Shown: positions 2,060 to 33,834, counted from the whole stretch's first letter. The stretch is DNA of 60,910 bases, filler included, from 14 parts of 14 records of this genome joined end to end with filler, not necessarily neighbours in it, one strand, 5' to 3'. Numbers and translations: made by a program. Notes: a model not told the origin generated them from the sequence alone.

Positions 2060-2372
2060 ATAATCTTTAGTATAGACTCTAATCATTGAAAGGAGTAAGT
2101 TTTCTACGAGAGATCTGCATAATAATGCTACAATACATATGAAACACAATATCCTGAAATATCCTGAAAAGAGACAAAGTAAACAAAGGATAAACAAAGG
2201 AGACGATCGCGAGGAGAGCTCTAGGCCTAGGTAGGCGAAGCAGAGAGGAAGCAGAGGGCTCTTGAGACGGAGGATAATTATTATACCGGTAGCTAGGTAT
2301 CAGCTTTTTGAGTACGCAACATTAGTTACTCGTAGCTAGCCACGCTGACGTCGCTGAGGACTTTCATCTTCA

Positions 2373-5300
2373 TCATCGTCGTTGGCCCGAGGAGGGTGAC
2401 CAGAGACCCCGCGGGCTCTTGTAGTCCGAAAAGTCCTCATCATCATCGTCTGACACACGATCCACTACATGTATGCCGCTCACTTCAGGGTTAGGACTGG
2501 GACTGCTGGCGTTGCTCTCTACAGGATAGGGCTCATCGGCCTGGTTCTGCTCGTCCTCCGGCAGAGCCATGAATGCTTGATACTCCACGCTTGTACCAAT
2601 CTCGCCCTCCTCATCGCCAGGGTTGCCATCGGCCTTCACCTCGTCCACTATTGTGATGATCATTTCCTCGCTTTCCCGCAGTGCCCGCGACATCTCCTCT
2701 TCCGTGACGGCTTGGTTCACACTCAACACCTGTCAGCCGCTCTCAGTCATGCGCACTGAGGCTGTCCAGATACCCGATCCCCGACCTGAATTTCACTGCT
2801 TGCTGCCACCCCACCAGAGAAGATGGCGTCCACCACCAAGTGCCCCTCCTTAGACCGACCCAGGCTAAGCCCGACCACGCGATTGGCTTCAGTCTTTCTG
2901 AGTGTTACCCGTCGGCACCGACTATCGCTCCGCGGGCGAGTGACGTCGAACTGTACGAGCCAGCGGAGGTGATCCGCCGTCGACTCGGCCTCGGCCTCGA
3001 TCTTGCCCGCAGTCGCCACCGCCTCGATATTCTTGAACTCGTGCTCATTGATCTCCCCTGCCCCGAGCTTTCGCTGCGCTGCACTCAGGGCGACTGCAGC
3101 CATCACGTGATCTTCGTTGTCGACGTGCAGCACCCCTGCGCTCATCTTTTCGCGCCAACGACTGCCCTTCTTGCCAGCCTCGAGCATCTGACCGTGCATC
3201 TCAACACAAAGGCAGCCGGCTTAGCACCTTGATTCGATACTCGGCCAGCTCTCGCTGAACGCTCCCATCAGCATGCCTAGCTGCCGATCGCGCGGCTCGG
3301 ATGTACTCTGTATGTGTATCGAACGTCTCTACAAGATAGGCCCTTTGCTGCTCGGGCGTCATCGTAACTATTTGGGGCACCATCTCAGGTCTGTGCGACT
3401 GCATCCACCTGCATCACCAACAGTGACCGAGCCTGACCAACCAGCAGCTCACGCGGTGAGTTCCGCCGCCGCTTCGCCGTCCGAGAGAGCAGCTACTAAG
3501 TCGCGCGATCTGGCAGAACTTGGCGGCGATTGGGCCGACAGATTCAGGCTTCTATCAGGCTGCTCGAGTGAGAGCTTCAAGGACTGGCACCAGCCTGCTC
3601 AGTGGCGCCATGCCGTTTGAGCACCTTGCTGATGTCATCCTTGACCCTTTGGCACTCCTGAATCTGCTGGGCCTCCTCGTGCAGAAAATCAGTCAAGTAG
3701 GCCTGCACCCCCGCCTCGCCGTCATCACCCGAGCGGCCTACCCGGCGCGTCTTTGTGTCGAGTTTGTCAATCTCTGTGATCATCTCAGGATTGTGTTTCT
3801 CCATCCACCTACCGCCGCAATCGCCCCAGCCGGTCCACCCAGCACTCACAAGGCGAGTTCCTCCACCACTTCCGCATCAGTGAGCGCCGCCACCAGCAGC
3901 TCCTCCGGCCGCGTCCCAGCAGAGCCGTACCAGGTCCTCATCTCAGACGCCAGGCTCTCCCTCGCCTCCAGATGTGGCGACTCGCTGTCTGTCGAAATAT
4001 CTGTCGAGACCGGCGTGTCCTCCCACGGCGTCTCTTCCCTCCTCCCCGGGGAGTCTGTCCTCACTGCTAACTGCTCGCGAAGCTTCTGGAGCTCCAGGTC
4101 CTTGGCCTCAGCTTCACGCACCTTGGCCGCTAGCTCGGCCTTGGTCTGCTCAAGCTCGGCGTCCTTCTGGCGCTTCTCAGCCTCCTGCTCCCTGAGCCGG
4201 CTCAGCTCCTCCGCCTTGACCTGTAGCTCGGCCTCCGTCTCAGCCTCGGTTATCATCAGCTTCTGCACCTTATCCTGCAGCTCTGCCTCGTTACTCTGGT
4301 GCTCCTGCAAATACAGCTCACAGACACCCAACACGCGGCTGTCACCTGCACCAGCGCACGCAGCGCGGCCAGTTCTGAGTGGTCCGGATTCGCGCCCACA
4401 ACGTCCTCGTCTACTGCCAGCTTCCCGGCCGCCTCCACCTCGGCTGCCCACTGCTCAAGCTCCGAGTACACCTCCTGTATCCTCGGCTGCGAGTTGGCAT
4501 GCCGCGCCGCCAACTGGGCCCTCAGCTGCATCACCGCTTCCACCCTCCGCTCGGCCTCCTCCACGTTCTCCAGCACCTCCGGTGACAGACCAAGCGCCTC
4601 ATCCGCCGACCGGCTCCGGAGAAGTCTATTTAGCGATGACGAGCTCGCCGACCCAGTCGGTGTTCGTGCCAAGTGATCTAGTCGGTCATCCAGCGAGCCG
4701 ATCTCGGCCGCGCCGGGGCTAGGGGCCCGTTTGGGACTCGGCTCGTCGTCGGTGTCTGCGACTTGGGTCTCCTGGCCTTGGCTGGTCTGTGCAGCGGTCG
4801 GCGACATCGACATCGACGGTGATTGTGACTCTGGCTCGAGACACCCGTACCCCTGCACCAAGCAGCTCAGGGCTGGCCGGTGGGGCGGGCGCCTGCTCAT
4901 TGGCCAGCACCGCCGGCAGCTGTTTTAGGAAGGCGCTGATGAATGGGAGCTGGCAAATTGCACTCATGGTCGGCCGGTTGGCAGGGTCCTTCTGGAGCAT
5001 ATCGTGGACTAGAGTGATCAGTTCAGAACCCCAGAGCTCGGGCACCGCGGGGTAGTCGTGCTGAGCCCAGATCCAGTCAGCCACACCGGCCGGGCTGTCC
5101 TGAGGCACCTGCACGATCTGGAGCACCACCGCATGCAGATTCTTCCCATTGAATGGCCTTTGCAGAGTCATCATCTCGTACAGCAAACACCCCAGCGCCC
5201 AGCAGTCGCTCTTCTGGTCGTACGGTTGCCCCAGACACAGCTCGGGCGACAAGTAGTACGGGGTACCACACGCCTATAGGGTTGCTCAGGCTGCACGAGC

Positions 5301-5738
5301 GGGCGCCAGACCGTCTGGGCGAGCTGGGACTCACTCGAGAGCGTACGGGCCAGCCCGAAGTCGCCGAGCTTGAGCCAGAGCTGCCCGACCAGGAAAACGT
5401 TGGCCGGCTTGATGTCCCTGTGCAGGATCCTGTGGCTGTGCAGATAGTCAAGCGCCAGCACAAGCTGCGTCAGCCATGTCAACACCTCCTGCGCACCAGT
5501 CCGCCACCGGCCGGCTGGGCTGCCAGCACCTGCTTTGAGAACTGGACGAAATCCTCCTTCTGCTTGGCCTTGAAGACGTCCTCCAGAGTCCCCCCGTCCG
5601 CGAAGTCCATCAATAGGTGCAGGCAGTTGCTGTGCATGAAACTCCCGTAGTACCCGATGATGTGAGGGTGCTCCTGCCGGCACAGATCACCGGCCAGGCC
5701 TGACAGCCGGCACCAGCCGTGTCAGGATCTTCACTTCA
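2373..5738 (-). CDS. NIMA-related (NEK) Ser/Thr kinase with coiled-coil region and PDZ-like segment; multi-intron, 5' truncated
   Basis: [52 protein letters not shown]; coiled coil about 3850-4500; [23 protein letters not shown]. Joining of the 3' exons is inferred. Confidence 0.85.
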
Positions 5739-5838
5739 NNNNNNNNNNNNNNNNNNNNNNNNNNNNNNNNNNNNNNNNNNNNTTAATTAATTAANNNNNN
5801 NNNNNNNNNNNNNNNNNNNNNNNNNNNNNNNNNNNNNN
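5739..5838. other. Artificial contig spacer N44-TTAATTAATTAA-N44, first of 13. Others start at 9997, 14029, 19454, 22990, 28366, 31560, 35148, 38760, 42310, 46968, 50418 and 54807; each is 100 bp
   Basis: Identical 100-bp structure with stops in all six frames; genes are truncated at the spacers. Confidence 0.99.
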
Positions 5839-6131
5839 AAATTAATAAATCAGGTACGAGAATAGGCAATGGCCGTACAGGATTGATCGTTTTCGTGTAA
5901 GTTTTAGATAGAATAATAGGCTTGATCACCACAAAGCGTCAACTAATGCAGCAAGCCACGTATCCATAGAGTGCCATTCAGACATGAATCAACTAGCTCG
6001 AACAATACCCACGCAGTACCGCACTAGACTCTGCAAGCGCATCCAGCTGCCGACCGAAAAAGATGCCCAGCTCAGAATCCGAAGACGACAAAGACGAGCA
6101 AAACCAGCTCACAACACCATCAACCAAGCCA

Positions 6132-7680
6132 TCAACACGTGGCAGCCGGTGGCAAAGAAGACCCCTTGAGAATTGCCTCCATCTCACGCTCGTGCTGCTC
6201 CCGCTGCACCTTCCTAATCAGGCGACTGCATAGCTTAACATTTCTCCTAATAAGGGAATTACCTGCGCCGCCAGCGTGCTCCGCAATGACTCACCGCTGC
6301 CAGCCGGATGCTCATCCGCCACACTCTGCACACGGCTCAGCCAGCCCCGAGCCGCCTGGCCACCTTGGGCGAGGGGTTGTCTGTGGTGTGCAGCTCAGCC
6401 GCCTTTGTAATGGCTGCTGCCAAGTCACTTTCTGAGCTCTTGCCGCCCTGCTTTGCAAAGAACGACGATCGTTCAGCAGTTGGCGGGTGGACTATAGTGT
6501 CGACCCTGCCATCTCCCACAGTATCGATCGCCACGGCGTCCGCCTTCCCGTCCCCGGTGGTATCGATTGGAAGTCCGATGGTCACGCTGTCGTCTCTAGC
6601 CGCCTCCTCCGCCTTCTTCATTGCAGCAAAGAAGCCTTCCGCTTCCTTGGCAACCGCATCGGCCGCCGCCGAGGTGGGCGAGAGCGGTGCGGCCTCGGCA
6701 GGCTGTGCGGCCGGCTCTGGGGGGACTGCTTCGGGCTGCTTGCCCATCTCTGGGAGAGTGGTTTGCTGCATCAACTGCCTCTCTGCTATGATCCTCTCCT
6801 GCTTGGTCATAGGCTTTCCGAGCTGGCCCGACGCGTGGTCCATTTTGGGCTTGGCGAAGAACGCTGAACGCTCCGCCGCAGGGGCCGCCGGGGCTACCGG
6901 GGCCGGCTTGGGAGCGAAGAATCCCGACTGCGCAGATGCCGCGGCTGGGGGGGCGGATGGCTGCGCTGTGCCGGTGCTACCGGCTGTCGATAGAGCGGAG
7001 ATCAGGGCGGAGGCGGAGGCCGGGGATGGGCGCGTGGCCATCCGGGCTGCGGCGGCCGTGGCAGGCCCGGCGTCGAGGAGCGGGCCACCAGCTTGCACTG
7101 CTGCCATCCTCTCCTGCCTCCGCTGCAACATCTCGCGCATCTGCTGGGCTGTCTCCAGCTTGCTGTTGGCCTCGCGCGGCGAGGCGATCCGGGAGGACAC
7201 CCGGCTGGCCTCCCGAGTGCGCGGGGGCGAGTTGGCCCGAATGTGAGCAATAAGTCGTCCGTCCACCCTCTGCGCCAGCGAGGAGTGAAGCGCGTCAAGC
7301 CGCTTCATCAGAGCGTCGAGTTTGGCCGACATCCCCGGGTTGGACTTGATCTTGGCCGCCTCCACCTTGGCCACGAGCCCCGCCTTGGCCTGCACTTCGG
7401 AGAGGAGCCTGTCGACGGGATTTGGCTCCTCCGGCTGCACGTATCCCGCAACCATATCCGTCTCGTCCTCGGTCAGTCGGTAACGGCCTGGTGACGGGCT
7501 CCGGGACCGGCTCAGCTCGGCCTGGAGGCCCTCGTTCTCGACCCGCAGCTTGGTGAGCTCCTCAGATAGCAGTTTGAGCCGTGCGGTGGCCTCGGTGGGC
7601 TTGCGGACCTCCCGGAGCCGACGGGCGCGGGAGGGCGGCTCCACTCGCCGATCGAAGAACTTGCCGCCAGAGTGCTGCAT
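6132..7680 (-). CDS. Uncharacterised coiled-coil/low-complexity protein with DxxGDG repeats
   Basis: 447-aa ORF 6337..7680 plus probable short 3' exons; DTTGDGKAD..DTVGDGRVD; the 3' end is uncertain. Confidence 0.6.
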
Positions 7681-7908
7681 CTCCGCCGAGAGTGCCGGGT
7701 CGCGCGCTCTGCAAGTGCTGCAAGAGGGCCGCCTCTGTTGTAGCTCACAGCACTAACGCCATTCTGCAACAGTTGTCCAACGGATTTGGATTGGCTGTTC
7801 TCGAGCTGTTCAAAGGCAGAAGGGACAGCGCTCTTGTCTGCCTGTGCCAGGGGCTCGACTGTCGCCACCACCCTCCGGACCAAATCGATCCGATCTGTCA
7901 CCAGCAGC

Positions 7909-9364
7909 ATGTCCAGGGCGCTGGGCCTGCTGCTGCTCGGGGCACTCAGTGCCGCCGCCGAGCCCGGCCGGTGCACCACGAGCTGGGCCGGGACCGCCTG
8001 TGAGTTCGAGACGGCGCTCATCTCAGGCCGCCCCGTCTACTACCAGACTCCACCCGGCGCCCCGCCAAGGGCCGGCTGGCCGGTGGCGTTCAACTTCCAC
8101 GGCTGGTCCCCCCCTGCCCCTTGCCCCGGGCCTGATCGCCGGCTCAGGTACTTGGACGGCCTTTCAGCATTTGAATCCTTCACGGCGGCCGAGTACGGAC
8201 TGCACTACAAGACGCTGACGACCAAGCGACTACTCGAGAGCGGGTTCGCGGTGAGCTGATTAGACGATCGGCCGCCGAGCTGATCGGCAGGTTGTGGCGC
8301 CGTCGGCTGCCGAGGAGTACCAGGATGCCTGGCAGACCAACATGCCCCCTTACAGCACGGACCTCGCGGCCTGGGCCGGCTCTGCCGACGCGGCGTACCT
8401 CAGCCAGATATTCTCGGCCATGCGGGCTGGGCTGCTCGGAGAAGGGTGCTGCGACATGGCTGATATGCATGCGGTGCTGCCTGGCCCGATTAGGCAATGA
8501 TGGGACGTCACAGGTGGGCTTCTCGTCGGGAGGGTATATGACGTCCAGGATGGCGTTCTCCTACCAAGGAATGTTCAGGTGCCATCCGCTCAAGCGCGGC
8601 CCGACCGCCAGGCTAGGTCGCTCAGCATAGAGTCTGCCTCGTACTACTTCTGTGGCGGTTCGGACTGCCCTGAGCCCGCAGAGCAGGACGTGCCTGGGCT
8701 GCGCAACCACCCACCAACACTCTTCATGCACGGCACCTCCGACCCGATTGTGCCTTCCGACACCTCCCAGAGCTACTACGCCAACCTGCTCCGGTACGGC
8801 GCGATTGCAGAGCGACACACTCAGAAAGGCGCTGGGCACCAGTGGATCGCGCAGGCGCCCGATTTAGTGACTAACTGGGTCATCTCCCACTCAAAGCGGC
8901 CGCGCCCCTTGGTGCCGCCCCCGCCGTTGCTGCCGCCGGAGCCGCTGCCGCCTCGAGACGCCTGGCGGTTCAAGCTGAAAGACAGTCACGGGCAGTGTCT
9001 GCAAATCGTGCCCGGGGGCCTGCTCCGAGTGCTGCCATGCCCCCAGACAAGCTCTACATGGGTACAGTGGGAGAGCGGCGCGATCGCAAGCGCCAACAAC
9101 ACCGGGATGTGCCTGAGCACGCCCGAACCACGGTGCCGTGCAGGGGCTGCCGTGGCGCTCGGTCGATGTTTTGGTAAGAGGAGCGGATATGTTCGATTGC
9201 AGCCGGCCAAGAATCGGCAGATCGAGCCCAGAGGGTCTTTAGTCCCAAACCGGTGTGCGGGCAAGTGCATCAACCAGAGCGCCACTGATGGGCGGGCGGT
9301 GCTAGCTGATTGTGCACCGTCTGATGTTCACTGGATGTTTGCGTCCCCGATGCCGGCAGTCTGA
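7909..9364 (+). CDS. Secreted alpha/beta-hydrolase (esterase/PHB-depolymerase-like) with C-terminal ricin-B-like domain; about 4 introns
   Basis: Signal peptide MSRALGLLLLGALSA; FHG, GFSSGG nucleophile elbow, HGTSDPIV (Asp), GAGHQW (His); Pro linker then GQCL/GMCL/GKCI repeats. Confidence 0.75.
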
Positions 9365-9587
9365 GGGCTGCACTAGTCAGTAACTGGTGACCAGTGTTCG
9401 TCAACTATACCATTGTTTGTCTACGTACCACTGTCCTAGTGCTGAGTGCTCACACAATCATGAACTAAACCATTTTACGTAATATTCAATATTTCAGAGG
9501 CGTAGTATCGCTCACTAAATGCTCTATAGATCTCCAATAGCCCGGCTATTGTACACTGATGTATTAAATTAGCTATTGTGAAGTATG

Positions 9588-9996
9588 CTAATTGAGCTCG
9601 GTATAGATACCATTGTAGGTTACTTCTCGAGGGGCATGGCTAGACCTGAAGCTTATGACTTGCTGGACCAGGCCGGACTCGGCTGTACTTGACGAGAAAA
9701 GTCCTCTCCGATTCAAGAAACGCCGCCCGAATCCAACTAGCAACAACAGTGGAGGAGCCAGCAAGCATAGGAGCAGCACGATCGGCCCGACTCCAAACTC
9801 TAGATCAACCATCACGAACACAGCCATCCCCGTCGCCAGTACAAGGCACATGGCTTTGAACATCCGAACAGGCACAAACACCAGCGCGCCGCTGGCCAGG
9901 CGCTCACCAAAGCTCCTCTTATCGTGAGCATCACACCAGCAGAGCGCGCAGAGCTGAAGCCACATGCCCACAGGTGCCAGCAGCAGCAGCATGGGT
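9588..9996 (-). CDS. 3' end of a multi-pass membrane protein
   Basis: Several hydrophobic segments; ORF is open at the contig edge. Confidence 0.5.
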
Positions 9997-10403
9997 NNNN
10001 NNNNNNNNNNNNNNNNNNNNNNNNNNNNNNNNNNNNNNNNTTAATTAATTAANNNNNNNNNNNNNNNNNNNNNNNNNNNNNNNNNNNNNNNNNNNNGCTA
10101 ACCCTAACTGTAACACTTTGTGCGATCTGGCCGAAAAATGGAACCTCATTGCGGACGTGGGTCCGGGCTGACGCCCGACGCGGCCCCCGGCCGCGTAAAT
10201 TATTCAAAAATGCATGTAGGTTTAAGAGCTCTAGGAATTCATGGCGGACGTAGCGCTCGCAGCGTCGCACCTCCGGCGCTCCTCGTGCGCTTTGTAGCTT
10301 TGGGGCCGCGTGTTGAAGACTGATCTGCGAGTAGAAGGTTGACTTTTAAACAAATACAATGCAGTTCCCACGCGGCCGACAGTCGTCGCACCAGAGTGGC
10401 GAT

Positions 10404-11279
10404 TTACGAAGCAGAATTTTGCAACGCAGTTGAGGGTTTGAGCTCAAGCCGTAGAACTTCTGCAGTGAATCCCGCATGCTTCTGTAGCTCTTTGAATGGT
10501 TTAGTCAGCTGGATCCGCATGGATGACATGGTTCCCTTAGTCGCATCAGCCCCATCACTAGATGTCTGACTAGTGTTCGTCTCAAGGTCGGGTAGAGCCA
10601 CGCAAACTATCAACTCTTCTTCTGGATTGTATTTCTCTAGTGCAGTGGACAGGTATTCCTTCATCTGCGATGAGCCCTGATGCTGCGCATAAAACCCAGC
10701 GGCAGCGTCTATGTCGATGTACTTCAGTGTGGCCCACGGTTTAGCATCAGGTGCCGGGGCCTGAATCTCAGCAATCGCATGGCTGGTGCGCATCAGAACA
10801 AACCCTTTACTGTTGCGGTGCTGCTCATACTTTTTTACCGCGAAAGGCGCCAGGACGCTGGGGACCAGTTGCTGTAGCAGCCCCTGCAGTGCAGGCGGGG
10901 CTGTGCCAGGCTGCTGGCCAGCCGTCATCGACTGCGGGACGTACGGCTTGGTCTGGAGAGTCGGAGGGCCAGCTCTCTCTGCCTCTCGCTCCCAGTCCAC
11001 CTTGTCCCACCGGTCGTAGTCGAGCTGCGTCTTCAACGGCTCTTTGGCCGGTTGCTTGGGCCGCTTAGGGTGGTGCGTCACCAGGTCTGGGCGCCGTGCA
11101 ACCGGGGCGGCCGGTGGGTGGGCGCGGGGGGTGGGCCTGTGCTCAGTCAGTGCAATCTGGAGGCTCAGCAGCAGGGCTGCTCCAGCCAGGACTGCTCCAG
11201 CTGTTGCCAGGCTGGTAACAGCGGCCAGCGCAGCCAGCAGCACAGCCCCCACCGCCAAGTCCGGCTGCCAGTCCCCCAT
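10404..11279 (-). CDS. Uncharacterised protein with N-terminal transmembrane segments
   Basis: Likely start MGDWQP at 11279; hydrophobic N-terminus; LDYDRWDKV motif; globular C-terminus (YNPEEELIVCV). Confidence 0.6.
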   Translation of the reverse strand: MGDWQPDLAVGAVLLAALAAVTSLATAGAVLAGAALLLSLQIALTEHRPTPRAHPPAAPVARRPDLVTHHPKRPKQPAKEPLKTQLDYDRWDKVDWEREAERAGPPTLQTKPYVPQSMTAGQQPGTAPPALQGLLQQLVPSVLAPFAVKKYEQHRNSKGFVLMRTSHAIAEIQAPAPDAKPWATLKYIDIDAAAGFYAQHQGSSQMKEYLSTALEKYNPEEELIVCVALPDLETNTSQTSSDGADATKGTMSSMRIQLTKPFKELQKHAGFTAEVLRLELKPSTALQNSAS

Positions 11280-11403
11280 GGCCAGTCGCGCCACCCCCCT
11301 TTGTCGTGGTGGAGTCGGCCCCGATTTTTTCCTGATCTCCTCTATTTTTATAGGTCTCGCGCCGATGCTGGACCGGACAGCCGCCGGCTGAGACGCGGCA
11401 GCG

Positions 11404-12891
11404 ATGGCGTTCAGTGCGATTTTCTTCGCCAAGCGGAAGGCAGCGCAGGCCAAGGACAGGCAGCTGCAGGTGCAGGCGGCCAAAAAGGGCTTCAAGTACC
11501 GGCTGCGGGTGTCTGTGAACAGGGGGGTCGGCCTGATCAATGTGGAGGAGGTGTCGAAGAGCGACCCATTCTGCGTCCTAAAGGTAGGCGAGGAGCAGCG
11601 GCGTACTAAGATGATTGCCAATGACCTCAACCCGATCTGGAACGAAAAGTATGACATTATGCTCAAAGAAAAGCAGGATCAGATCACCTTCGCAGTGTTC
11701 GATATGGAAGGGATTGGAGAGCCGGTGGCCATGGGGGGCTTCGTGCTGCACATCGATAGCCTGCTCGACGTGGGCGATAGGTGGTTCTCTCGGAAGCTCA
11801 GGATCGACAGTCAGCCAGAGCTGGACTGTGGCGAGCTGGAGTTCGAGATGGACTACACCACACTGCCGCAGCTGGAGGAACTCGCAGCCCGGACTAAAAA
11901 CTACCCCAGGAGGACTGGTCGGCCTGTGTGCTGCAGGTGGGAAGAAGAACAGTGCTGCCCTTGCTACGATGAGCACGGTAAATGCGCATTCGATCACCCA
12001 CCGGCAGCGCACAAGGGATCGTACTCTTGTTGCCTCGGGCTTCTTGAAAACAGCACGTCAGCTCCAGATGTGGACACACCAGACCTGTTGAAGCAGAGCC
12101 CACTTCACATGGCATGTCTGGCTGGCCATGAGTATCAGATCAAAGTCACATCATTGGTGAATTCGAAGACATCTGGATTCTCACCTGAGTTCACCATCCA
12201 AGACCGACCTCAGAGCGAGATTGATAACGTTGAGCTGAACCGCTTGAAAGAATCCATATCACAAATGTTATTGAAGTTCACTAGAGACAGTGTTAGTGAA
12301 ACTTATGCTGAGGCCGAGGAGGACACTGTGAATAAGTTAGAGAGGGAAACAGGCATAGATCTTGATGGCGATGGAGATATTGGAGAAACTGGACAGAGTT
12401 TGCTGAAAAGTAAAGTTGTAAACGATGGAGGCTTGCTGCTAGTTTGTCTGGCAAGGCCGAGTCTTGGAGTTGGACGGACAACAATCAACAAGATTCTGAA
12501 CGACACGACCTTGTACTTGATGAAATTTCGTGAGGCAAAGCAACGATTATTGAAAGGCGATTCGAGTGGTGATCCCAGTTCGAGTTGGTTTTCAGGAAAT
12601 GGACAGGACCCCGAAGCCCCCCACGAGGCAGCAGGTGAACATGAGCGCGCACCTGGATCAGAAAGCGAACAGTGGTTCAGTGGGCGCAAAGCTCCTGAAG
12701 AAGCGGGACAGGAAGCTGAAGCGGCGGCCGCGCCATCTGATGAGGCGAGTGCAAATCAGGAGGCTGAGGGTGACATTGCGCCATCTGATGAGGCGAATGT
12801 TGCAACCGACGCTGATGCGGCTGCTGCATCACCTGATGAAACGAGTGCGGCATGGTTTCAGAATCAAGAGCCGGCACAAGAGCTAGCTTAA
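11404..12891 (+). CDS. C2-domain protein with CCCH-like finger, ankyrin-like segment and acidic tail
   Basis: SDPFCVLKVG..TKMIANDLNPIWNE..FAVFD (C2); YPRRTGRPVC..GKCAFDHP; SPLHMACLAGH. Confidence 0.8.
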   Translation: MAFSAIFFAKRKAAQAKDRQLQVQAAKKGFKYRLRVSVNRGVGLINVEEVSKSDPFCVLKVGEEQRRTKMIANDLNPIWNEKYDIMLKEKQDQITFAVFDMEGIGEPVAMGGFVLHIDSLLDVGDRWFSRKLRIDSQPELDCGELEFEMDYTTLPQLEELAARTKNYPRRTGRPVCCRWEEEQCCPCYDEHGKCAFDHPPAAHKGSYSCCLGLLENSTSAPDVDTPDLLKQSPLHMACLAGHEYQIKVTSLVNSKTSGFSPEFTIQDRPQSEIDNVELNRLKESISQMLLKFTRDSVSETYAEAEEDTVNKLERETGIDLDGDGDIGETGQSLLKSKVVNDGGLLLVCLARPSLGVGRTTINKILNDTTLYLMKFREAKQRLLKGDSSGDPSSSWFSGNGQDPEAPHEAAGEHERAPGSESEQWFSGRKAPEEAGQEAEAAAAPSDEASANQEAEGDIAPSDEANVATDADAAAASPDETSAAWFQNQEPAQELA

Positions 12892-13098
12892 ATTAATCTT
12901 TCTGAACGAATTGCAATCATTAAAAGGCAAAGGTTGACAACCTTTTGAAGCCCTACTACGAGCCATGGCTATAATTATATACTCGTTTACAACATATTAT
13001 GCATACGAGTACGTATTGGACTCGCACACATTTTTGTATTGGTTTTACTCATCAGTCGACGTCTTATCAAAGCTAAGTTGATTGATCGTGTACTGATC

Positions 13099-14025
13099 CT
13101 AGCTGAGAATAGCGTTGCATTGTGCTACCAGCTGTTGGAACGGCTCGCACTTGGCCAAGTGGTCAAAGTCGCGCAGCTGCCACACAAACCGGATCGGAAT
13201 TCTGTCCGGCTCGTGCCCAGCATACTCGAGCTCGCCACAATACACGTACCCCTCGCCCTCGTTACGGCAGAACAGCAACACCGGCGTCGGTTCGACGTGC
13301 TCCACTCGGCCGTCGTCGTCCGCTATCTCCCCACCTACAGGCGCTCGTCAGTAAGCCTCTCTGCAGAGCGCGCGGTCACCTGAGCTATTGACGAGCCTCT
13401 GAATCACAGGCGTGCCTTCCCACTGCCGGGGCTGGGCAAACCAGGTGACCTCCCGCCCGCCGTGCAGGAAGGCGTTCTTGTACCCGTCCCCGTACACGTT
13501 GATGAACAGCATCACAGCGTTCTCCCATTCCTGAATCCCGCTCATCCGCGAGAAGGTCGGCGGGCCATCCGCGCTGGCAGCCTCCATCGCGGCTCGTTTG
13601 ACCTGTCCGCCGAGCGGTGGGATGATCGCGCCGAGCTGCTCCTCGTGCAGCCGATCCAGGGCCACGTTCAGCACCCGGCACGACCGTGGGTTGGCCGGTT
13701 TGGTCGCCGGGACGTCCGAGTGCACTATCTTCCGCCGCTTGACCGGCTGCTCGACGCCAGGATCGACCGGCTCGGCCACAGGCTCAGGCGGGCCGTCAGA
13801 CTCTACGGCGCTGGCCCGTGAGACGATCCGGGCCGAGCGCCGCTCGGTGCCGTCGTCCACTCGCATAGGGACCGCCCGACGGCGGCGGGTGCGGGCGGTG
13901 GGGGCCATCTTGCCGGTGGCCGAAACCGTGAGGCCCTGCACGTCGATCCCCAGCCGCCGCAGCTCCTCGGCGTTCCGCCGGATGTTGTCCAGCCGCCGCT
14001 GCTCGTACTCGGACAGCCCAGCCAT
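13099..14025 (-). CDS. Protein with N-terminal LSEYEQRRLDNIRRN helix and C-terminal DUF3427-like domain; intron 13335-13379
   Basis: A 45-nt GT-AG intron with TACTGAC joins ORFs 13348..14025 and 13099..13305 in frame; LFINV..YKNAF..VTWFAQ..VLLFCR..YVYCGEL..PIRFVWQL. Confidence 0.7.
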
Positions 14026-14128
14026 TGCNNNNNNNNNNNNNNNNNNNNNNNNNNNNNNNNNNNNNNNNNNNNTTAATTAATTAANNNNNNNNNNNNNNNN
14101 NNNNNNNNNNNNNNNNNNNNNNNNNNNN

Positions 14129-16236
<2,108 letters not shown>

Positions 16237-16921
16237 CGTGCCGGTCGTGCTGGTACCTGGACCGCTGTTGTTGTTGTCGATCATGATCAGCAGGCCTAGG
16301 ATCCAACCCTAGCATGACTGCATGAGAACAATGGCAAGCACACGCCTCAATTCGTTGATGCAAGTCTGGCCCTTCAACACACATCTCTGTGCCCTGCTCA
16401 AACTGGCGATGTATGCATTAAAGAGAAGAGGGCCAAACCCACCATGCCAATGTTCCCATCAATTGAGCGCGTTCTTGGACACCACGGTTCGACGGTTGCC
16501 TGGTGTCTGGCGAACTGCGATTGGTACGCTGCTCCCTGCTTCTTGCCATTTTTGGTTTTCTCCACCTTGTGCTCTTTGCTCGCTAGGGCTTCACCGATCG
16601 TTCTGATAAACTTCGTCATCCTTCGAACCTGGTCGATGTATGATGGTCCGCCGCTCCTCCAGGAGATTGGCGACCTTTCGTTGCCACCTCCTTACTTCTT
16701 GCTCCAGCTCAGCTGTGTGGGTGCTTGAGGCGAGTTGCACATCGCTGATGGCGCCGCGCATCCGATCCACAGCGTCGTCCCACCTCGCTCCGCGAGCATT
16801 GCCGGCTTTGGAGCCTGGCCCGCGTCGTCGTGAAGCCCAGCTTCCGTTGGTGCTCAAACCAACGGACGGCTTCAACAAAGCTCGGGCAAGCACATCGCCC
16901 CGCGGCTGGTACAGGTTAGTC

Positions 16922-17707
16922 ATGTCGGGCATCGGGACGGGCTATGATCTCTCGACCACCACATTCTCGCCCGACGGCCGGGTCTTCCAAGTAGAGTACG
17001 CCGGCAAGGCGGTGGACGCCAGCGGGACCGTGGTGGCCGCCAAGTGCAAGGACGGGATCGTGATGGCGGTCGAGAAGATGGTCCGGTCCAAGCTGCTGGT
17101 GGAGGGCTCAAACAGGCGGTCGTTCGCGATCCACCGGGGCGCCGGGATGAGCGTCGCCGGCTTCCAAGCCGATGCGCGCCAGATTGTGCTCCGGGCCCGC
17201 TCCGAGTGCGAGCAGTACAAAAATTCCTATGGCGGCGTCATACCCCCGCACGTGCTGAACGAGCGGATGGCCTCGTTCATGCACCTGTACACGGTGTACT
17301 GGACCGTGCGGCCCTTTGGAGTGGGCGTCCTGCTGGCCCAGCACGGCCGCGACGGCTATGAGCTCTACCAGCTCGACCAAGCGGGGGCGGCCTACAGATG
17401 CTACGCCGGGGCTATCGGGAAGGCGCGGCAAGCGGCCAAGACCGAGATCGAGAAGCTCAATCTGGAGGAGCTCTCCAGCCGGGACGCGCTTTACGAGCTT
17501 GGCAAGATCATCCACACTGTGCATGACGACATCAAAGACAAGGACTTTGAGCTCGAGCTCTCCTGGATCAGCGACGAGACCGACCACAAGTTCCAGCTGG
17601 TGGCCAAGGAGATGAAGGACGAGATCGAGACCCGGATCAAGGCCGCACTCGAGGAGGAGAGTGATGATGATGATGATGACGATGACGATGAGGATGAGGC
17701 TCAGTAG
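16922..17707 (+). CDS. PSMA3: 20S proteasome subunit alpha type-3 (alpha7), intronless
   Basis: MSGIGTGYDLSTTTFSPDGRVFQVEYA, VRPFG, GKARQAAKTEIEKL, KDKDFELELSW, acidic tail. Confidence 0.95.
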   Translation: MSGIGTGYDLSTTTFSPDGRVFQVEYAGKAVDASGTVVAAKCKDGIVMAVEKMVRSKLLVEGSNRRSFAIHRGAGMSVAGFQADARQIVLRARSECEQYKNSYGGVIPPHVLNERMASFMHLYTVYWTVRPFGVGVLLAQHGRDGYELYQLDQAGAAYRCYAGAIGKARQAAKTEIEKLNLEELSSRDALYELGKIIHTVHDDIKDKDFELELSWISDETDHKFQLVAKEMKDEIETRIKAALEEESDDDDDDDDDEDEAQ

Positions 17708-18040
17708 GTAGAATGAACCGAGACCGCGGCAGATTCGAGGCAGGGCGCCCCCAGCTTTGCCGCGCTGGCTCATACCTGCGCGCGTGCTGCTGCTGCTGCC
17801 TGCTTCAATCCTAGAAGGGGTTGCATGTTGATGGTGCGTTCATTACTTTTTGATCATAGAAACATTCATTCGAATCGAGTGTTAATGAGCTACTTAAATC
17901 TTACTATCAGCCTATAATCACACGCCTATCGTCGTAACTTTTAATCGAGAGCATTTACGCACTCTTACATTACTGAGCGGGTCGAAGCGGTGATTGCGTA
18001 CACAGATTACTCGTCGTATAACCGCTCCCGCCTTACGAAC

Positions 18041-18907
18041 CTAGTTGTACCAAGCCCCTATTGCTTGCGGCTCATAGCCGCCTACCTGATAGCTGCTCTG
18101 ATAGCCTTGCGCGCGTGCTGCGCCGTCCCACTCGGCTCTTGAAACCATCCCGTCTCCGTTTGAATCTACATGCTCAAATCGTGGCCGGGCCTGCAGCTGC
18201 TTCAGACTCTCCTGGATCTCCTGAAGCCTCGAGCTGCCGTCTAGAACGTCCACTCGCTCCGCATTAATCGACTCGCTGTGCTGCCCCACGGGTGGTATCC
18301 AGTTCGGCGGCGCTGCTGGCGGCCAGACTCCCCAACCCATCGACTGCTCGTATCCCGAGCCACTCAGCTGTTGGACACTAGACGGCGCTGAGAAGCTCTG
18401 CGGCTCGGGGTACGCCAGCGGCTGCTCGCGCGGCGGGCTGAGCTCGTTCAGCTCCTTGCAGGAGCTTGCGAGCGACGCTTCCAAGACCGAGACCCTCTGT
18501 TCGAGAGCCTCGCGCTGCATCGTTGCCGTCTCCTGAGCTACGCTGTCGGCCAGCCGGGCCAGTCGGTCCTCCACCATTTCCTGCCGGCGCTGGCCCCGGC
18601 TGCTTACCGCTGCCATCCCGGCCCGCAGCGCCCGCCCTTCCTCCTCCTCCACACTCACCGGCCCGTTCCGCCGTTCCGTGAGCTGAGAATGGAGTCGCGT
18701 GACGTCCCGCTGGTGCGCCGCCCGAAGTTCGGCCAATTCCTGCTGGTGTCGCTCGGCCTGCTCGCCCAGCGCCCGCTCGGCCCGTGTGAGCGAGTCCTCA
18801 AGCCTAGCCTTGTCCGCCACCAACTCCCGGATCCGATCCTCGAAGCACCGCAGATCCGGCCTCGGACCAGCCCGCGGCAGTGGGTCACAGCCCTCGGCAG
18901 CTGTCAA
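18041..18907 (-). CDS. Last exon of a coiled-coil protein with one EF-hand; probably extends toward 19453
   Basis: Heptad-rich sequence; FEHVDSNGDGMVSRAEW. Confidence 0.6.
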   Translation of the reverse strand: MTAAEGCDPLPRAGPRPDLRCFEDRIRELVADKARLEDSLTRAERALGEQAERHQQELAELRAAHQRDVTRLHSQLTERRNGPVSVEEEEGRALRAGMAAVSSRGQRRQEMVEDRLARLADSVAQETATMQREALEQRVSVLEASLASSCKELNELSPPREQPLAYPEPQSFSAPSSVQQLSGSGYEQSMGWGVWPPAAPPNWIPPVGQHSESINAERVDVLDGSSRLQEIQESLKQLQARPRFEHVDSNGDGMVSRAEWDGAARAQGYQSSYQVGGYEPQAIGAWYN

Positions 18908-19553
18908 CCGTCTACCGGGCGGGCGCTCGGTACGGGCCAGGTATACGGTTGACAGCTGCCGAGGGCTGTGGAGACCGGACTGCGGCTCGGCGGGTGGGCT
19001 GTTTGGGCTCCGGTGCGGCGCCGGATCAGCAGTGGCCGGCTCGACCGGCGAGCTGAAGTTGTTGTTCCACGGAGGCCTCCGCCCGGCCGGACCTCCTCGC
19101 CTGCAGACCCACTCAGTTCACACCAGAGGCCCGCCACACCGCATGATGGCCGTTGGAATCATCAGCGTCAGTTGGGCGTCGAGGAGCCACTGGGGCTATG
19201 GGGAATGGGCCGCAATCGAAACAGGCCGGCAGGTTCGAGGTCCAGCTGGGCCGCAGCGCAACCCTCCAACAGAGCGCCTCGGTGCCGGCTGACGCAGCTC
19301 CTGCGGTCCGGATGGCAACCAGCGCCCCGGTCAGGCGGCCGGCCCGGTTGGTGGCGCCGCCGGACGGGGCCGACGCTGACGAGGACGGCGACGCAACGTC
19401 TCCACGTCACAGCCGAGTGAGCACCGTGGAGCCGGAGCTGCTGGAGCCGGATGNNNNNNNNNNNNNNNNNNNNNNNNNNNNNNNNNNNNNNNNNNNNTTA
19501 ATTAATTAANNNNNNNNNNNNNNNNNNNNNNNNNNNNNNNNNNNNNNNNNNNN

Positions 19554-22325
19554 CACCAAGTGATGCCTCTGTACGCCAATACGCACACCAGCACCTCGAT
19601 CACCGGGCTCCAGTCCAGCTGCTACCGGCACGAGGCCCGGCAGGTGGTCGCCGAGAGCTGCAACGCCAAGATCACTGGGCGTGGGGCGGTGGATGTGGTG
19701 CTCTTCGCGGGGTTCGGGTCGACTGGGGCGGTGCGGACCATGGTCACCTGCCTCGGGCTGCACATGCCGCTCCCGCCTGACACCCCGGCCGGCCGCAAAC
19801 CGGTGGTGTTTGTGGGCCCGTTCGAGCACCACTCCAACCTGCTGCCCTGGCGCGAGTCGTCGGCGGACGTGGTCACTATCCGCGAGGACCCTGCCACCGG
19901 CCAGCTTGACCTGGGTCACCTGAAACATATGCTCGCTCAATATGCAGGCAGGCCGCTCAAGATCGGCGCGTTCTCGGCCGCCTCCAATGTGACTGGCGTG
20001 CTCACCGACACCAACGCCGTCACCGCGCTCTGCCACCGGCACGGCGCACTGGCCTTCTGGGACTACGCGACCGCGGCTCCGTGCGGAGGCGTCGATATGA
20101 ACCCGCTTGTTCTAGGGCCAGATCAGGCATTGGTGGCGAAGGATGCGGTGTTTATTTCGACGCATAAGCTGGTGGGCGGCCCAGGCTCGCCGGGAGTGCT
20201 GGTGGCAAAGAAGAGGCTAATGGCAAACCCTGTCCCGTCCAGTCCAGGCGGAGGCACTGTGTTCTTCGTGACAGATACCGATCACCGATACCTTTCAAAC
20301 CGGGAGGAGAGGGAAGAGGGCGGCACGCCGGACGTGCTCGGGGCAGTCAGGGCTGGGCTCTGCTTTCGACTCAAACAGCAGGTGGGCGCGGCGGTCATCG
20401 AGAAACTGGAGGGCCAATTGGCAATGCGAGTCTTCACGGAGCTGACCAGCAACCCGAGGCTGCTGCTGTGTGGGCCTCTCCCGCCGGGTGTCCCGGCTCC
20501 GAGCGGGGCTGTGCAGGCCAAGCGGCTGCCAGTGCTCTCATTCATGGTCCGTTGGAACCGCCGGCTGCTGCATTACAACTTTGTCGCTGCAGTGTTGAAC
20601 GATCTGTTCGGAGTGCAGGCTCGAGGAGGCTGCCAGTGTGCAGGCCCGTACGGACTCCGGCTGCTCGGGATCAGCCCAGACGATGCGCGGCAGATCGAGG
20701 CGGCGCTGCTAGACAAAGCAGAGGTGCTCCGGCCCGGTTTCTGCCGTGTCAGTTTTCCATACTTCATGGGTGACGACGAGGTGGCCTACATTCTGGCCGC
20801 TATTCAGTTTGTAGCCGACCATGGCTGGCGCCTATTGCCAGCGTACCGGTTCAATCATAAAACAGGCGAGTGGAAGCATAGCAGCTGTTTCACAAAGTTT
20901 GCCCAACGGAAGTGGCTGAGCGACTTTGACTTTGACGTGTCAGGCCTGCACGCTCAACCTGATCCAGAGCAACCTGACGAATCTGTGCTCGATGTAGAAA
21001 AGGCCCTGGCTGCAGCCAGGGAGGTAGCAATTGCATGCGGTAGATCGGCCAAGGGTATGAGTATAGACCATACTAGCACGCTCGATCCCAATTTTGAGCC
21101 GCTGCGGTGGTTTGTGTATCCGTCCGAAGCCCTGGAGTTGCTCAAGGCTCAGCCTCAACTTCCGACGACTATCGACATGTCCACTTGGGGCGAGCTACTC
21201 GGTCCTGTCCATATACGTAAATACGATGGGTCAGCCAGCCCCTGGGACGCTGAGGTAGAACCCGGGTTGCCTGAGCCGACGCCTGAAGCCTCAGAGCCCT
21301 CCAACCCGCCGCCATCTTCTCAGCCGAAACCACCAGCATCAGTGGCTCCGCCGCCAGTGAGTGCCAAGTATCCATCACGCAGCAGCGCCGTTGCCCCAAC
21401 AGGTCCGACCTTTCTTGATCCGTCAGCAGCGGCCGCTATCTCCACTGTCTCTAGCAATTCACAGCAGGCCGTGCTTCGGCCTAAGGTTCCAAACAAGCTC
21501 AAGACATCAGTCGGTAAAGCCATTCAAGACTGGCGTATGATCCAGCCAGGAGACAAATTGATGCTAGGGCTATCCGGTGGTAAAGACTCGCTCACCCTGT
21601 TGCACGTATTGATGGACTTGCAGCGCCGCTCGCCAGTCAAATTCGAGCTAGCCTGCGCCACTGTGGATCCGCAAACTGCTTCTTTTGACCCAAGTCCAAT
21701 GAAGGAATACTGTGCAGCTCTGAATGTGAAATACTTTTATTTATCTGAGCCGATAGTGGCTCGAGCCAGGACAGAAATGCAAGGTGACAGTCTGTGCGCC
21801 TTCTGTTCTAGAATGAAGCGTGGGCTGCTGTACTCGTGTTGCAGGCAAGAAGGGTTCAATAAACTGGTGCTAGCCCAGCACCTGGACGATCTGGTGGAAA
21901 GCTTCTTCATGAGTTGTTATCATGGCCAGACCAGGACAATGAAGGCAAACTACCAAGCCGACGAAGTTGCTAACTTACGAGTGATCAGACCGCTGATTTA
22001 CACGCGCGAGACCGTGACAAAGCAATTCGCGTACAGCAGCTGCCTTCCTGTGATAAATGAGAATTGCCCAGCGTGCTTTGAGGAGCCCAAGGAGCGGCAC
22101 AGGGTCAAGAAGATGCTCGCCAAGGAAGAGTCGCTCTACTCGGAACTGTTCGCAAACATGAGACGCACTCTGCTGCCGCTGATGGACGAAGACACCTACA
22201 GCTATCTCGAGGCCAAACGAGACGAGATTCTTAATAGAGGAGGGGCGGACCGTCAGAAACGTCGAAAGCAGGAAGAGCTAGAAGAGAAGGCGAAGAAGCA
22301 GAAGGTCGCCAGTGTACAACAATGA
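19554..22325 (+). CDS. Class-V PLP cysteine desulfurase (SufS-like) fused to TtcA-family tRNA thiolase; 5' truncated, intronless
   Basis: EHHSNLLPW, SNVTG, STHKLVGGPG (PLP lysine), EEGGTP, RGGCQCA; Pro-rich linker; SGGKDS PP-loop, CAFC, HLDD, IRPL, CPAC. Confidence 0.9.
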   Translation, partial: HQVMPLYANTHTSTSITGLQSSCYRHEARQVVAESCNAKITGRGAVDVVLFAGFGSTGAVRTMVTCLGLHMPLPPDTPAGRKPVVFVGPFEHHSNLLPWRESSADVVTIREDPATGQLDLGHLKHMLAQYAGRPLKIGAFSAASNVTGVLTDTNAVTALCHRHGALAFWDYATAAPCGGVDMNPLVLGPDQALVAKDAVFISTHKLVGGPGSPGVLVAKKRLMANPVPSSPGGGTVFFVTDTDHRYLSNREEREEGGTPDVLGAVRAGLCFRLKQQVGAAVIEKLEGQLAMRVFTELTSNPRLLLCGPLPPGVPAPSGAVQAKRLPVLSFMVRWNRRLLHYNFVAAVLNDLFGVQARGGCQCAGPYGLRLLGISPDDARQIEAALLDKAEVLRPGFCRVSFPYFMGDDEVAYILAAIQFVADHGWRLLPAYRFNHKTGEWKHSSCFTKFAQRKWLSDFDFDVSGLHAQPDPEQPDESVLDVEKALAAAREVAIACGRSAKGMSIDHTSTLDPNFEPLRWFVYPSEALELLKAQPQLPTTIDMSTWGELLGPVHIRKYDGSASPWDAEVEPGLPEPTPEASEPSNPPPSSQPKPPASVAPPPVSAKYPSRSSAVAPTGPTFLDPSAAAAISTVSSNSQQAVLRPKVPNKLKTSVGKAIQDWRMIQPGDKLMLGLSGGKDSLTLLHVLMDLQRRSPVKFELACATVDPQTASFDPSPMKEYCAALNVKYFYLSEPIVARARTEMQGDSLCAFCSRMKRGLLYSCCRQEGFNKLVLAQHLDDLVESFFMSCYHGQTRTMKANYQADEVANLRVIRPLIYTRETVTKQFAYSSCLPVINENCPACFEEPKERHRVKKMLAKEESLYSELFANMRRTLLPLMDEDTYSYLEAKRDEILNRGGADRQKRRKQEELEEKAKKQKVASVQQ

Positions 22326-23089
22326 CAGCCTGCTGCCAGCATCTAGAAATGATGCTTATCAGCCATGTAGGAAGACAATGACAGGAAGCTCTAATTGACG
22401 CCTGGTAGCTAAAGAGCGATCAAGCTCGGCTGCCGGGCCGAAGTGGGCTGCGTGTGTGCACTTGATCACGCGCAATTGTCAATTGATGATTTCACCAACA
22501 AATACATGTAAACAAAATGATATAATCACTTGGGTAAAATCCGGCTCGGTTTGTAATAAACAAGCTTTTCTTCATTACTTTCAAAATCCGTCCAAATCGA
22601 ATCGCTAACCTAAGCCTTCTTACTCACAGAGTTTCTTACTTTCGGTCGGAGGAAGATATTCGATTCGTCCAAAATAATGCGGAGGGGGGGGGTCAAATGG
22701 GACTCTCAAGCTCTGAGCCGATGGCCCAAGAGTTGCTGATTGCTGGGCACTCGTCGACTCGCTAGCAGTAGTTGCGCTCGGGGCCAATACAGTAGCCCGC
22801 TGCCGAGTTCCACGACTGGCAGCTGAACTTGCAACTCCCCCAGGTCGGGGGCGGTGGAGGGGCTGCCAAGCAACGCGTGGTGGTGCTTGTTGTGTATGAG
22901 TCACCGTGAACAACGTTCCTCGTTGTGCACATCCCAGAGACACACTGCTTATCACCCCAGCAGAGCCGTCCAGCCGCGAGCCCGGTCTCNNNNNNNNNNN
23001 NNNNNNNNNNNNNNNNNNNNNNNNNNNNNNNNNTTAATTAATTAANNNNNNNNNNNNNNNNNNNNNNNNNNNNNNNNNNNNNNNNNNNN

Positions 23090-27289: not shown

Positions 27290-28212
27290 ATCGTTAATTT
27301 AGTACATACGTAGGTAGAAGCTCATCGACTCGTTCGTAGAATCATGACAATCATGAATGTTAATTACTTGTACATGTAATTAAAGACGTGTAAAATCAAT
27401 CGTACATTGACTTCAACTAGACTTCAACGAGTAAATGTAATTCATGTAATCCGACAGCTGAGATCCCACACCCGTCGGAAAGTTGGCATGACAGACCCAA
27501 GCACATTCCCCGGCTGGCCGTCCCTAGTTTGTGCTCGCTGCCAGTGCTCGCCCGCGTGGTGTACTCCGGAATCCGCTTCTCCCGGCGCTGTTTGCCGCGC
27601 CTGCGACCGTCTTGGCGCCCCCTGTGGGGGGCATATTTATCTTATTCTTCGTTCAATGTAGAGTTCGATGTAGGGGGCACGTTAGGGGCACGTGAGCATT
27701 AGACGCCTCAGTCTTATACTGACTGATAGCTCTACTACCGTTGTACATCGATCTCCCCAACGCACGGCGCCTTGTTAGTTGTCCGACCGCGGCGGGCAGG
27801 CAGTAGGCAGGCAGAGATTGATCATGCCGTGATCGACTACATGTACGCGCGCAAGTAGTCGTCCGTCCGGACAGTTTGAAGCGCCGGCGACCCAGCGGCC
27901 GTGTCCCGTAGGGCCGTGTCCCGAACTCCCGTACAGCGCCCAACAGGGCGAATCGTTAGCAACAGGGCCGAAAACGACGAGGCATTCCTTTGTCCCGCCG
28001 GTCGCCAGCAGGTGCCTCTTACCACTCCTTGCAACTACTGCAGTGTCCCGACGAGACATTGCATTACGGCCGGTCTCGACCTCGACCGGCTCGTCCGTGG
28101 CCGCGTCCTCCGCTCTCTTGGACCAACTCATGAGTGGTTGGCGCGCTCGGCCACACACCAGGTTTCAGTTGTTGGGATTCTATATTGCAGCTCGGCCACA
28201 CACCGGGTTTCA

Positions 28213-28365
28213 ATGGCTGACGCGGGGGCCGCTGGGTCGCCCGCCACGCCGACCATGGGTTGCACGGTCGGGGGGCTGGAGCTCGAGCTCAAGACACCAG
28301 CCGGCCCATCCGAACACGGAGCCACCGCGGTGAGCCGGCTCCGCGAGTGGTGCCGGCTGCAGCCC
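28213..28365 (+). CDS. Possible 5' start of a truncated gene
   Basis: ATG followed by GC-rich codons, open to the contig edge. Confidence 0.4.
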
Positions 28366-32461: not shown

Positions 32462-32498
32462 CGCTTATTCCATAAATAGATCTAAAAATAAAATCAGG

Positions 32499-33800: not shown

Positions 33801-33834
33801 ATACGTATAGACCACCATTCATTTGATAAATAAG

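Follow-up and report, generated by a model that had tools for sequence, protein, structure and literature searches.

A widespread eukaryotic protein family with a CDCA7-like helix, an RRSxR motif and a predicted SRA-type DNA reader

The stretch of DNA studied here (60,910 nucleotides, hereafter the window) carries on its minus strand, at 14025..13099, a gene for a protein with a CDCA7-like N-terminal helix, an RRSxR motif and a predicted DNA reader domain at its C-terminus. A preliminary description, made from the sequence alone, had proposed that such a protein could target a chromatin remodeler to modified DNA, and all the strings that it quoted occur in the minus-strand translation of 13099..14025. 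The gene has two exons and a spliced coding sequence (CDS) of 882 nt, that is 293 codons and a stop (Table 1). The reading frame is interrupted a single time, by a TGA that lies within an intron of 45 nt (13379..13335), and the 15 residues that the intron would encode are absent from all 28 homologues of a first alignment (A1). One RNA contig, from run X4, joins 13334 to 13380, skipping exactly these 45 nt (the junction was reported as 13331->13377, with the cut shifted by +3), and the splice ends read CT..AC on the plus strand, which corresponds to GT..AG on the strand of the gene. This splice-spanning contig is the only one (depth 2, short side of 23 nt) and is weak taken alone. Other parts of the CDS are covered by RNA-library contigs from three studies, with 0-5 differences per 151 nt. 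The gene is genuine, undergoes splicing and is represented in RNA libraries.

The window is eukaryotic. About 15 contigs, each 3-5 kb long, follow one another in it and are linked by N44-TTAATTAATTAA-N44 spacers (14 joints within 5739..54906, e.g. 14029..14128), so that genes flanking a spacer are not neighbours. The contig bearing the gene spans 10097..14028. Only 3 nt separate the ATG from a contig joint (N-run 14029..14072), and the promoter and 5' untranslated region are therefore missing. Since the homologues start at the same place, 2-8 residues ahead of an LSEYE motif, the start is probably correct. The source of the gene is an uncultured marine protist. The DNA of the window was detected, in small shares only, in marine and seawater metagenomes and metatranscriptomes, and its gene content is eukaryotic (a fragmented HSP70 gene, a gene for a proteasome alpha subunit, and others of the C2, U-box, RCC1 and WD40 types).

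Table 1. Features of the gene and of its predicted protein; positions are those of the window.
Feature	Position	Strand	Residues or codons	Basis and remarks
Exon 1	13380..14025	-	codons 1-215 and first base of codon 216	ATG 14025..14023; translation, exon arithmetic, homologue alignment
Intron, 45 nt, GT..AG, phase 1	13335..13379	-		in-frame TGA inside a TACTGAC branch-like site; sequence, homologues, RNA contig
Exon 2	13099..13334	-	rest of codon 216 to residue 293	followed by stop TAG 13101..13099
N-terminal amphipathic helix, CDCA7 HLBH type, Y-E-x-x-R-x-x-N-I-x-R-N-x-x-x-L-x-x-L-G (LSEYEQRRLDNIRRNAEELRRLGI)	13945..14016	-	4-27	conservation, model, CDCA7 register; string from translation
RRSARI, HMGN/Dsup-like putative acidic-patch motif	13825..13842	-	62-67	R62, S64 and R66 invariant; string from translation
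KRRK, candidate nuclear localisation signal in disordered linker	13729..13740	-	96-99	sequence; KRxR in family consensus
SRA-like (DUF3427-type) reader domain, intron-interrupted	13102..13683	-	about 115-293	AlphaFold2 model of relative P0003, structure searches, Pfam in relatives, hhalign
Reader landmark FSRMSGIQ	13531..13554	-		invariant or near-invariant
LFINV		-	173-177	translation
Reader landmark Y-K-N-A-F	13468..13482	-	182-186	invariant or near-invariant; translation
Reader landmark T-W-F-A-Q	13432..13446	-	194-198	invariant or near-invariant; translation
Reader landmark LLFCR	13264..13278	-	235-239	invariant or near-invariant; translation
YVYCGEL		-	245-251	translation
PIRFVWQL		-	262-269	translation

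By sequence comparison, the gene is a member of a large, unannotated eukaryotic family of proteins of about 300 residues. A homologue search with a threshold of E<=1e-3 recovers 90 relatives, led by one at 1.2e-101 with 57% identity; most have about 300 residues and come from transcriptome or metagenome data, and precomputed Pfam domains are lacking in all of them. The profile built from 41 members (alignment A2) matches, among clusters of 50% identity, 2374 representatives at E<=1e-3; their number falls to 803 at <=1e-10 and to 311 at <=1e-30, and the 150 matches listed all score <=2.3e-41. Judged by these scores, the strength of the matches is far beyond chance. The corresponding Atlas cluster is 100% eukaryotic, with Bacillariophyta as the most common group, and the named members come from Phytophthora citrophthora and from the green alga Cymbomonas tetramitiformis. 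Searches by pattern gave two matches in viral contigs and 15 in contigs of prokaryote genomes, none of which was confirmed as a relative. The broadest alignment used here (A5) comprises 102 members with 28-84% identity to P0003, a relative that shares 58-60% identity with the window protein. Its invariant positions, in P0003 numbering, are R63, S65, R67, K151, G171, N184, N192, W203, R246, G256 and L276, and the near-invariant ones include Y10, E11, R14, I18, N21 and L28 of the N-terminal helix. Among the 125 stored members with a long N-terminus, the helix is found by pattern in 100, RRSxR in 115 and both in 94. No description of the family was found in the literature searched, and among the papers on DUF3427 that were found none is, by its title, on eukaryotes. 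Each of the four elements (SRA reader, DUF3427, CDCA7 helix, HMGN motif) is known by itself, but no account of all of them combined in a single widespread and unannotated family of eukaryotes was found.

Two longer proteins, P0218 and P0219, were considered as genuine fusions and set aside, both being probably merged gene models. P0219 shows tRNA_edit and an exonuclease alongside the family module. P0218 (Phytophthora citrophthora, 1387 aa) carries a complete module at 2-278, ankyrin repeats and then a more diverged copy of the reader domain at 1117-1274; it probably merges two or three neighbouring genes, in which case the two copies would be tandem paralogues.

At its C-terminus, the protein has a domain with an SRA fold that is a homologue of bacterial DUF3427 (PF11907), as judged from sequence profiles and a structural model. 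Four independent lines lead to this link. The first is made up of the weak yet concordant Pfam matches of the relatives, found in 2 of 86 at E<=0.05 and in 12 of 127 at E<=0.01, all of them on profile positions ~136-269 of 280; one of the 213 relatives scanned lies above the curated cut-off of 27.7 bits (P0150, 39.8 bits) and 13 others lie below it. A tblastn search of plasmids with P0150 retrieved 7 records, in 6 of which the match falls within a gene annotated as DUF3427, DEAD/DEAH helicase or DUF3883, and these six plasmid-borne cores all exceed the Pfam cut-off. When the family alignments are compared by hhalign with the six bacterial cores, they match over 86-88 columns (probability 97.3%, E 1.9e-11 for A2; 98.0%, E 1.5e-13 for A5). 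Finally, the AlphaFold2 (AF2) model of P0003 has a predicted local distance difference test score (pLDDT) of 81 for the whole chain, with values exceeding 90 within residues 120-300. A VIA structure search of this model against 48,161 chains is led by the target recognition domain (TRD) of SauUSI (Z 10.1, root-mean-square deviation 2.2 A over 113 residues, chain 803-953). Only readers of SRA type occupy ranks 2-15 (SUVH5 9.8, KYP 8.8, SUVH6 8.7, AspBHI, LpnPI, TagI, ScoMcrA, UHRF1, AbaSI, MspJI, SUVH9, PvuRts1I 6.7) and rank 16 falls to Z 4.2. The first Foldseek match of the same model is again the SauUSI TRD, the one DUF3427 member with a solved structure (7CLG, chain 7clg_A, E 1.5e-4). The proposal of a DUF3427-like and PUA/SRA-like C-terminus made in the preliminary description is thus borne out by hhalign and by both structure searches.

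Domains with the SRA fold turn a modified base out of the double helix and take it up in a pocket. In SauUSI, the TRD adopts this fold, discriminates 5-methylcytosine (5mC) and flips it into a pocket made of Y831, F841, I842 and W868, with M829 as a wedge and D858 reading the base (PMC7913695). Fusions of DUF3427 with PD-(D/E)XK nucleases bind 5mC or 5-hydroxymethylcytosine (5hmC) (PMC6765204). In a sub-family alignment to SauUSI, the invariant Trp of TWFAQ pairs with W868 and the invariant Asn with D858. The only match of the sub-family profile in the PDB is SauUSI, at an E-value of 0.2 that is not significant by itself, P0150 alone matches no PDB sequence, and SAD_SRA is not matched in any Pfam scan of the window protein and its relatives.

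Two plasmids of Streptomyces carry stand-alone DUF3427 genes near DNA cytosine methyltransferase genes, one gene apart in L001 (1970..2980 and 4424..5435) and adjacent in L002 (467..1537 and 1907..2941), a proximity that matches the defence-island pattern of the DUF3427 fusions described in PMC6765204. On a Priestia plasmid (L004, 2351..3376), a protein with DUF3427 and NOV_C (annotated as DUF3883) is encoded between nuclease-domain and HNH endonuclease genes, beside dnd DNA sulfur-modification genes.

The N-terminal helix is nearly invariant at its Y, E, R, I, N and L in both A2 and A5, and in the AF2 model of P0003 it occupies residues 9-27 with a pLDDT of about 90. In the vertebrate CDCA7 alignment given in the supplement to PMC11417364, Helix-1 reads F-x-x-x-R-x-x-N-I-x-x-N-x-x-x-L-x-x-L. 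Placed in register by eye, the family helix reads Y-E-x-x-R-x-x-N-I-x-R-N-x-x-x-L-x-x-L-G-L, and every position common to both is conserved in the family. Both Arabidopsis class I CDCA7 proteins are closer (S-x-Y-E-x-x-R-x-x-x-I-x-x-N-x-x-x-M-x-x-L-G-[LI]); an ungapped comparison of window residues 4-33 with NP_195428, also by eye, gives 11 identities in 30. The pattern shared with vertebrates occurs once, in this gene, among the 121,816 six-frame residues of the window, in none of 71,672 residues of bacterial loci and in none of 4,560 shuffles of family proteins; it is present in 69 of the 228 stored proteins (227 family members and P0218). In human CDCA7, residues 108-143, which contain the helix, are required for HELLS binding (PMC11417364); its deletion abolishes HELLS binding in Xenopus extract, where the helix was named HLBH (PMC11343034), and in Arabidopsis the predicted binding site of the helix is CC2 of DDM1 (PMC12718391). 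The by-eye register match to this published HELLS-binding helix lends support to the claim of a CDCA7-like N-terminus. Against PDB sequences, matches were at chance level only, both with the family profile (BRD4 0.64, SETD8 1.1, PARP1 9.8) and with the 75-residue N-terminus (YjgA, L29, a designed repeat), and an ESM Atlas search with residues 1-80 of P0003 gave no usable match. A predicted complex between the P0003 N-terminus (1-58) and its domain (115-305) scored 0.00 which, without controls, is uninformative either way.

In CDCA7, the zinc finger reads hemimethylated CpG in the major groove (PMC11343034). That the window protein would lack this finger was also anticipated correctly: it has no Pfam match to zf-4CXXC_R1 (PF10497, which has 11 cysteines), and its five cysteines form no CxxC. 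PF10497 was likewise not matched in the one plasmid record searched or in 14 control genomes.

Between helix and reader, R-x-S-x-R is invariant in all the sequences of three alignments (29/29, 41/41 and 102/102), and the stretch is disordered in the P0003 model, as would fit a peptide motif. In cryo-electron microscopy structures, RRSARLSA of HMGN2 (R22/R26) and PPRRSSRLT of tardigrade Dsup (R363/R367) place their first and last Arg in the H2A-H2B acidic patch, and phosphorylation of the Ser was modelled to break this binding (bioRxiv 10.1101/2025.01.06.631586); R188 and R192 of SET8 lie likewise in the acidic patch (PMC7893823). The family profile did align RRSxR to this stretch of SET8, at an E-value of 1.1 that is not significant, and Pfam HMGN is not matched in the window protein. 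The preliminary description had regarded the motif as an RRS.R linker like that of CDCA7, a view which holds in part. In both Arabidopsis proteins, about 50 residues past the helix, RRSSRL-x-N-x-T-P-V-x-Y-x-[ED] stands in register with the family RRSxRxxGxPAPxYxE, and the succession of helix and RRSxR has the same order and register as in Arabidopsis class I CDCA7. Nevertheless, the RRSR stretch is not conserved in the printed vertebrate alignment, and the invariant HMGN/Dsup-like motif is more than a linker. As a separate observation, the RRSxR..Y.E stretch of P0193 (residues 60-78) has a weak Pfam match, below cut-off, to the Shugoshin C-terminal basic motif (E 0.0086), which is another nucleosome-binding peptide.

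CDCA7 and HELLS form a remodeling complex that is required to maintain DNA methylation in heterochromatin. Because an SRA-type reader, a CDCA7-type helix and RRSxR occur together without zf-4CXXC_R1, a second route of bringing a chromatin remodeler to modified DNA appears supported at the level of architecture. The protein would then act in the nucleus as an adaptor with the build of CDCA7 but another type of DNA reader, and KRRK is, from its sequence, likely to be its nuclear localisation signal. In such a mechanism, R62 and R66 of RRSxR would anchor the protein on the H2A-H2B acidic patch, with S64 as a possible phospho-switch. The SRA-like domain would flip and read a methylated base in the nearby DNA, the invariant Trp of TWFAQ stacking on the flipped base and the invariant Asn of Y-K-N-x-F reading its Watson-Crick edge. 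The N-terminal helix would dock on the N-terminal coiled coil of a remodeler of the HELLS/DDM1 type and deliver it to the marked chromatin. HELLS binding, nucleosome binding and the ligand are here inferred from likeness. In hosts with DNA methyltransferases, the ligand would most likely be hemi- or fully methylated 5mC, or 5hmC. This full CDCA7-analogue mechanism is tentatively preferred, its chances being a little short of even.

The distribution of the partners among the hosts fits such a role. Funabiki et al. report CDCA7 to be absent from SAR lineages except Tribonema, though several of them keep HELLS (PMC10538959). As the columns of their supplement table read, enzymes of the DNMT3/4/5/6 type and 5mC occur in three diatoms, each with a HELLS entry (marked Ct-truncation) and with no CDCA7 orthologue, and Phytophthora sojae has HELLS with neither DNMT nor CDCA7. 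The widespread family described here would thus be a concrete candidate for the missing adaptor in lineages that lack CDCA7 and, if the CDCA7-analogue mechanism is true, a bacterial modification sensor would have been built into the eukaryotic chromatin machinery.

Several observations weigh against this mechanism. The window protein has no Pfam match even at E<=10, whether searched as exon pieces or as a read-through with X, and does not reach the DUF3427 cut-off, so that the DUF3427 link is made through relatives, profiles and the model of P0003. The comparison with CDCA7 was made by eye on printed sequences and carries no alignment statistic; the family profile matched no CDCA7 chain in the PDB at E<=10, where it is not known whether any solved chain contains the helix. 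RRSxR alone is weak, with 33 occurrences in the six frames of the window, and is distinguished here, on sequence grounds, by its invariance and placement; its P..Y.E extension, present in 50 of 125 relatives, is absent from the window protein. The proposed connection with HELLS is drawn from likeness and from table columns, and the window contains no SNF2 or DNMT gene. A search for longer members with fused domains returned 2 matches among 7997 scored candidates, neither of them informative, an absence that is weak evidence. Two further points on the same side bear on 5mC as the ligand, namely the presence of the whole module with all landmark residues in a protein of Phytophthora citrophthora, and the replacement of an acidic pocket residue. 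In the SauUSI model, the flipped cytosine is contacted by D858, and all six bacterial cores have D or E at this position. In the family it is Asn in 151 of 167 sequences by pattern, with none acidic, and in all 102 of A5; the pairing of this Asn with D858 holds in two of three alignments and is shifted in the third.

The last two points are those on which an alternative reading of the pocket is built: the ligand would be N6-methyladenine (6mA), for example hemimethylated after replication, 5-hydroxymethyluracil or a lesion, and the change from Asp to Asn, which could on sequence grounds mark another specificity, would be the sign of the switch. P. infestans and P. sojae have 6mA and neither a 5mC methyltransferase nor detectable 5mC (PMC6211444). 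Since a family member occurs in P. citrophthora and these two congeners are without 5mC, 5mC cannot be assumed as the ligand: either one non-5mC mark is common to all hosts, or the ligand varies by lineage. The retention of HELLS without DNMT in P. sojae points in the same direction, as do the m6A readers among PUA-like folds and the divergent SAD/SRA domain proposed as an m6A reader (PMC4738411). Yet the characterised DUF3427/SRA relatives all read cytosine modifications, diatoms, the group in which the family is most frequent, possess 5mC, and the Asn-to-D858 pairing is not stable in every alignment. Moreover, Asn can pair with the N3/N4 edge of cytosine as well. On balance a ligand other than 5mC seems unlikely, although it could coexist with either the CDCA7-analogue mechanism or the other-partner alternative considered below. 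Quite improbable, in its full form, is an ancient CDCA7-independent adaptor for remodelers of the HELLS type whose SRA-like pocket reads a non-5mC mark, most plausibly 6mA. If true, it would explain why HELLS is kept in oomycetes despite their lack of cytosine methyltransferase and CDCA7, and would provide a dedicated eukaryotic reader of DNA 6mA coupled to nucleosome remodeling. A member in a genus for two species of which no 5mC is reported may point to a reader of another mark.

The partner may also be questioned while the reader and the nucleosome anchor are kept. The helix could recruit a DNMT5-like DNA methyltransferase, a histone methyltransferase or a ubiquitin ligase, or pair two copies of the protein. 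The SRA fold serves many effectors in known proteins such as SUVH and UHRF1, the likeness to the CDCA7 helix extends over only some 20 residues judged by eye, and diatoms have DNMT5 together with HELLS entries marked as truncated. In addition, residues 31-50 of P0003, past the helix, have a modelled pLDDT of 85-87, a hint that the N-terminus is in part packed against the domain. Nevertheless, the conserved positions are exactly those of the experimentally mapped HELLS-binding helix and Arabidopsis CDCA7 has both N-terminal motifs in the same order, and another partner is rather unlikely. A last possibility is that of a mere architectural binder of nucleosomes or DNA, similar to HMGN, that kept an SRA-shaped fold without reading a modified base. 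The HMGN-type motif would suit such a role, the ligand of the domain is itself a prediction, and SUVH9, one of the structural matches, is atypical in base recognition. However, N184, N192, W203, R246 and G256 in the region of the pocket (P0003 numbering) are invariant across the 102 divergent members of A5, which argues for a specific ligand, and a purely architectural role is very improbable.

Elsewhere in the window, a gene for a C2-domain protein (11392..12888, plus strand) lies on the same contig as the CDCA7-like gene and is convergent with it; the C-terminal half of its product is acidic, Ala-rich and of low complexity. The nearby HSP70 gene (14162..16417, minus strand) sits on another contig. 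It consists of four or more separate open pieces, with introns as the presumed interruptions, and reaches a contig joint, so that it may be cut. On the plus strand, 24668..27286 is an open frame of 873 codons with a U-box domain at its end, and the bin at 26-27 kb has an AT skew of 0.62 and imperfect repeats rich in purines, an indication that a charged region of low complexity precedes the U-box.

Among known systems, the best structural match of the family lies with the SauUSI TRD and bacterial DUF3427, including DUF3427-DUF3883 fusions of the McaZI type, with which it shares a homologous core and the landmarks W..Q, LF.R, G..Y..H and P..F.W.L. The bacterial proteins act in restriction and are fused to helicases, PLD or PD-(D/E)XK nucleases, whereas the family has no nuclease or ATPase, is eukaryotic, has an intron and carries chromatin motifs; it also covers only the last ~140 of the 280 Pfam profile positions, and has Asn instead of Asp/Glu. 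With the SRA proteins of eukaryotes (UHRF1/2, SUVH4/5/6/9), the model of P0003 shares the fold at Z 6.9-9.8, and UHRF1/2 and SUVH are likewise chromatin proteins that read methylated DNA. In contrast to these, the family has no Pfam SAD_SRA and no SET, RING, PHD or Tudor domain, and its sequence is nearer to the DUF3427 branch.

The resemblance to HMGN and tardigrade Dsup (RRSARLSA and RRSSRL, compared with RRSARI in the window) consists of the R-R-S-x-R core with the same spacing of R, S and R; this short motif alone is in common, and nucleosome binding by the family is a prediction. The resemblance to CDCA7, finally, is that of a helix whose conserved positions match, by eye, those of the HELLS/DDM1-binding helix, and the succession of helix, RRSxR, basic linker and C-terminal DNA reader is that of the Arabidopsis proteins. 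The family differs from CDCA7 in the reader itself, where a predicted base-flipping beta-barrel stands in place of the zinc finger.

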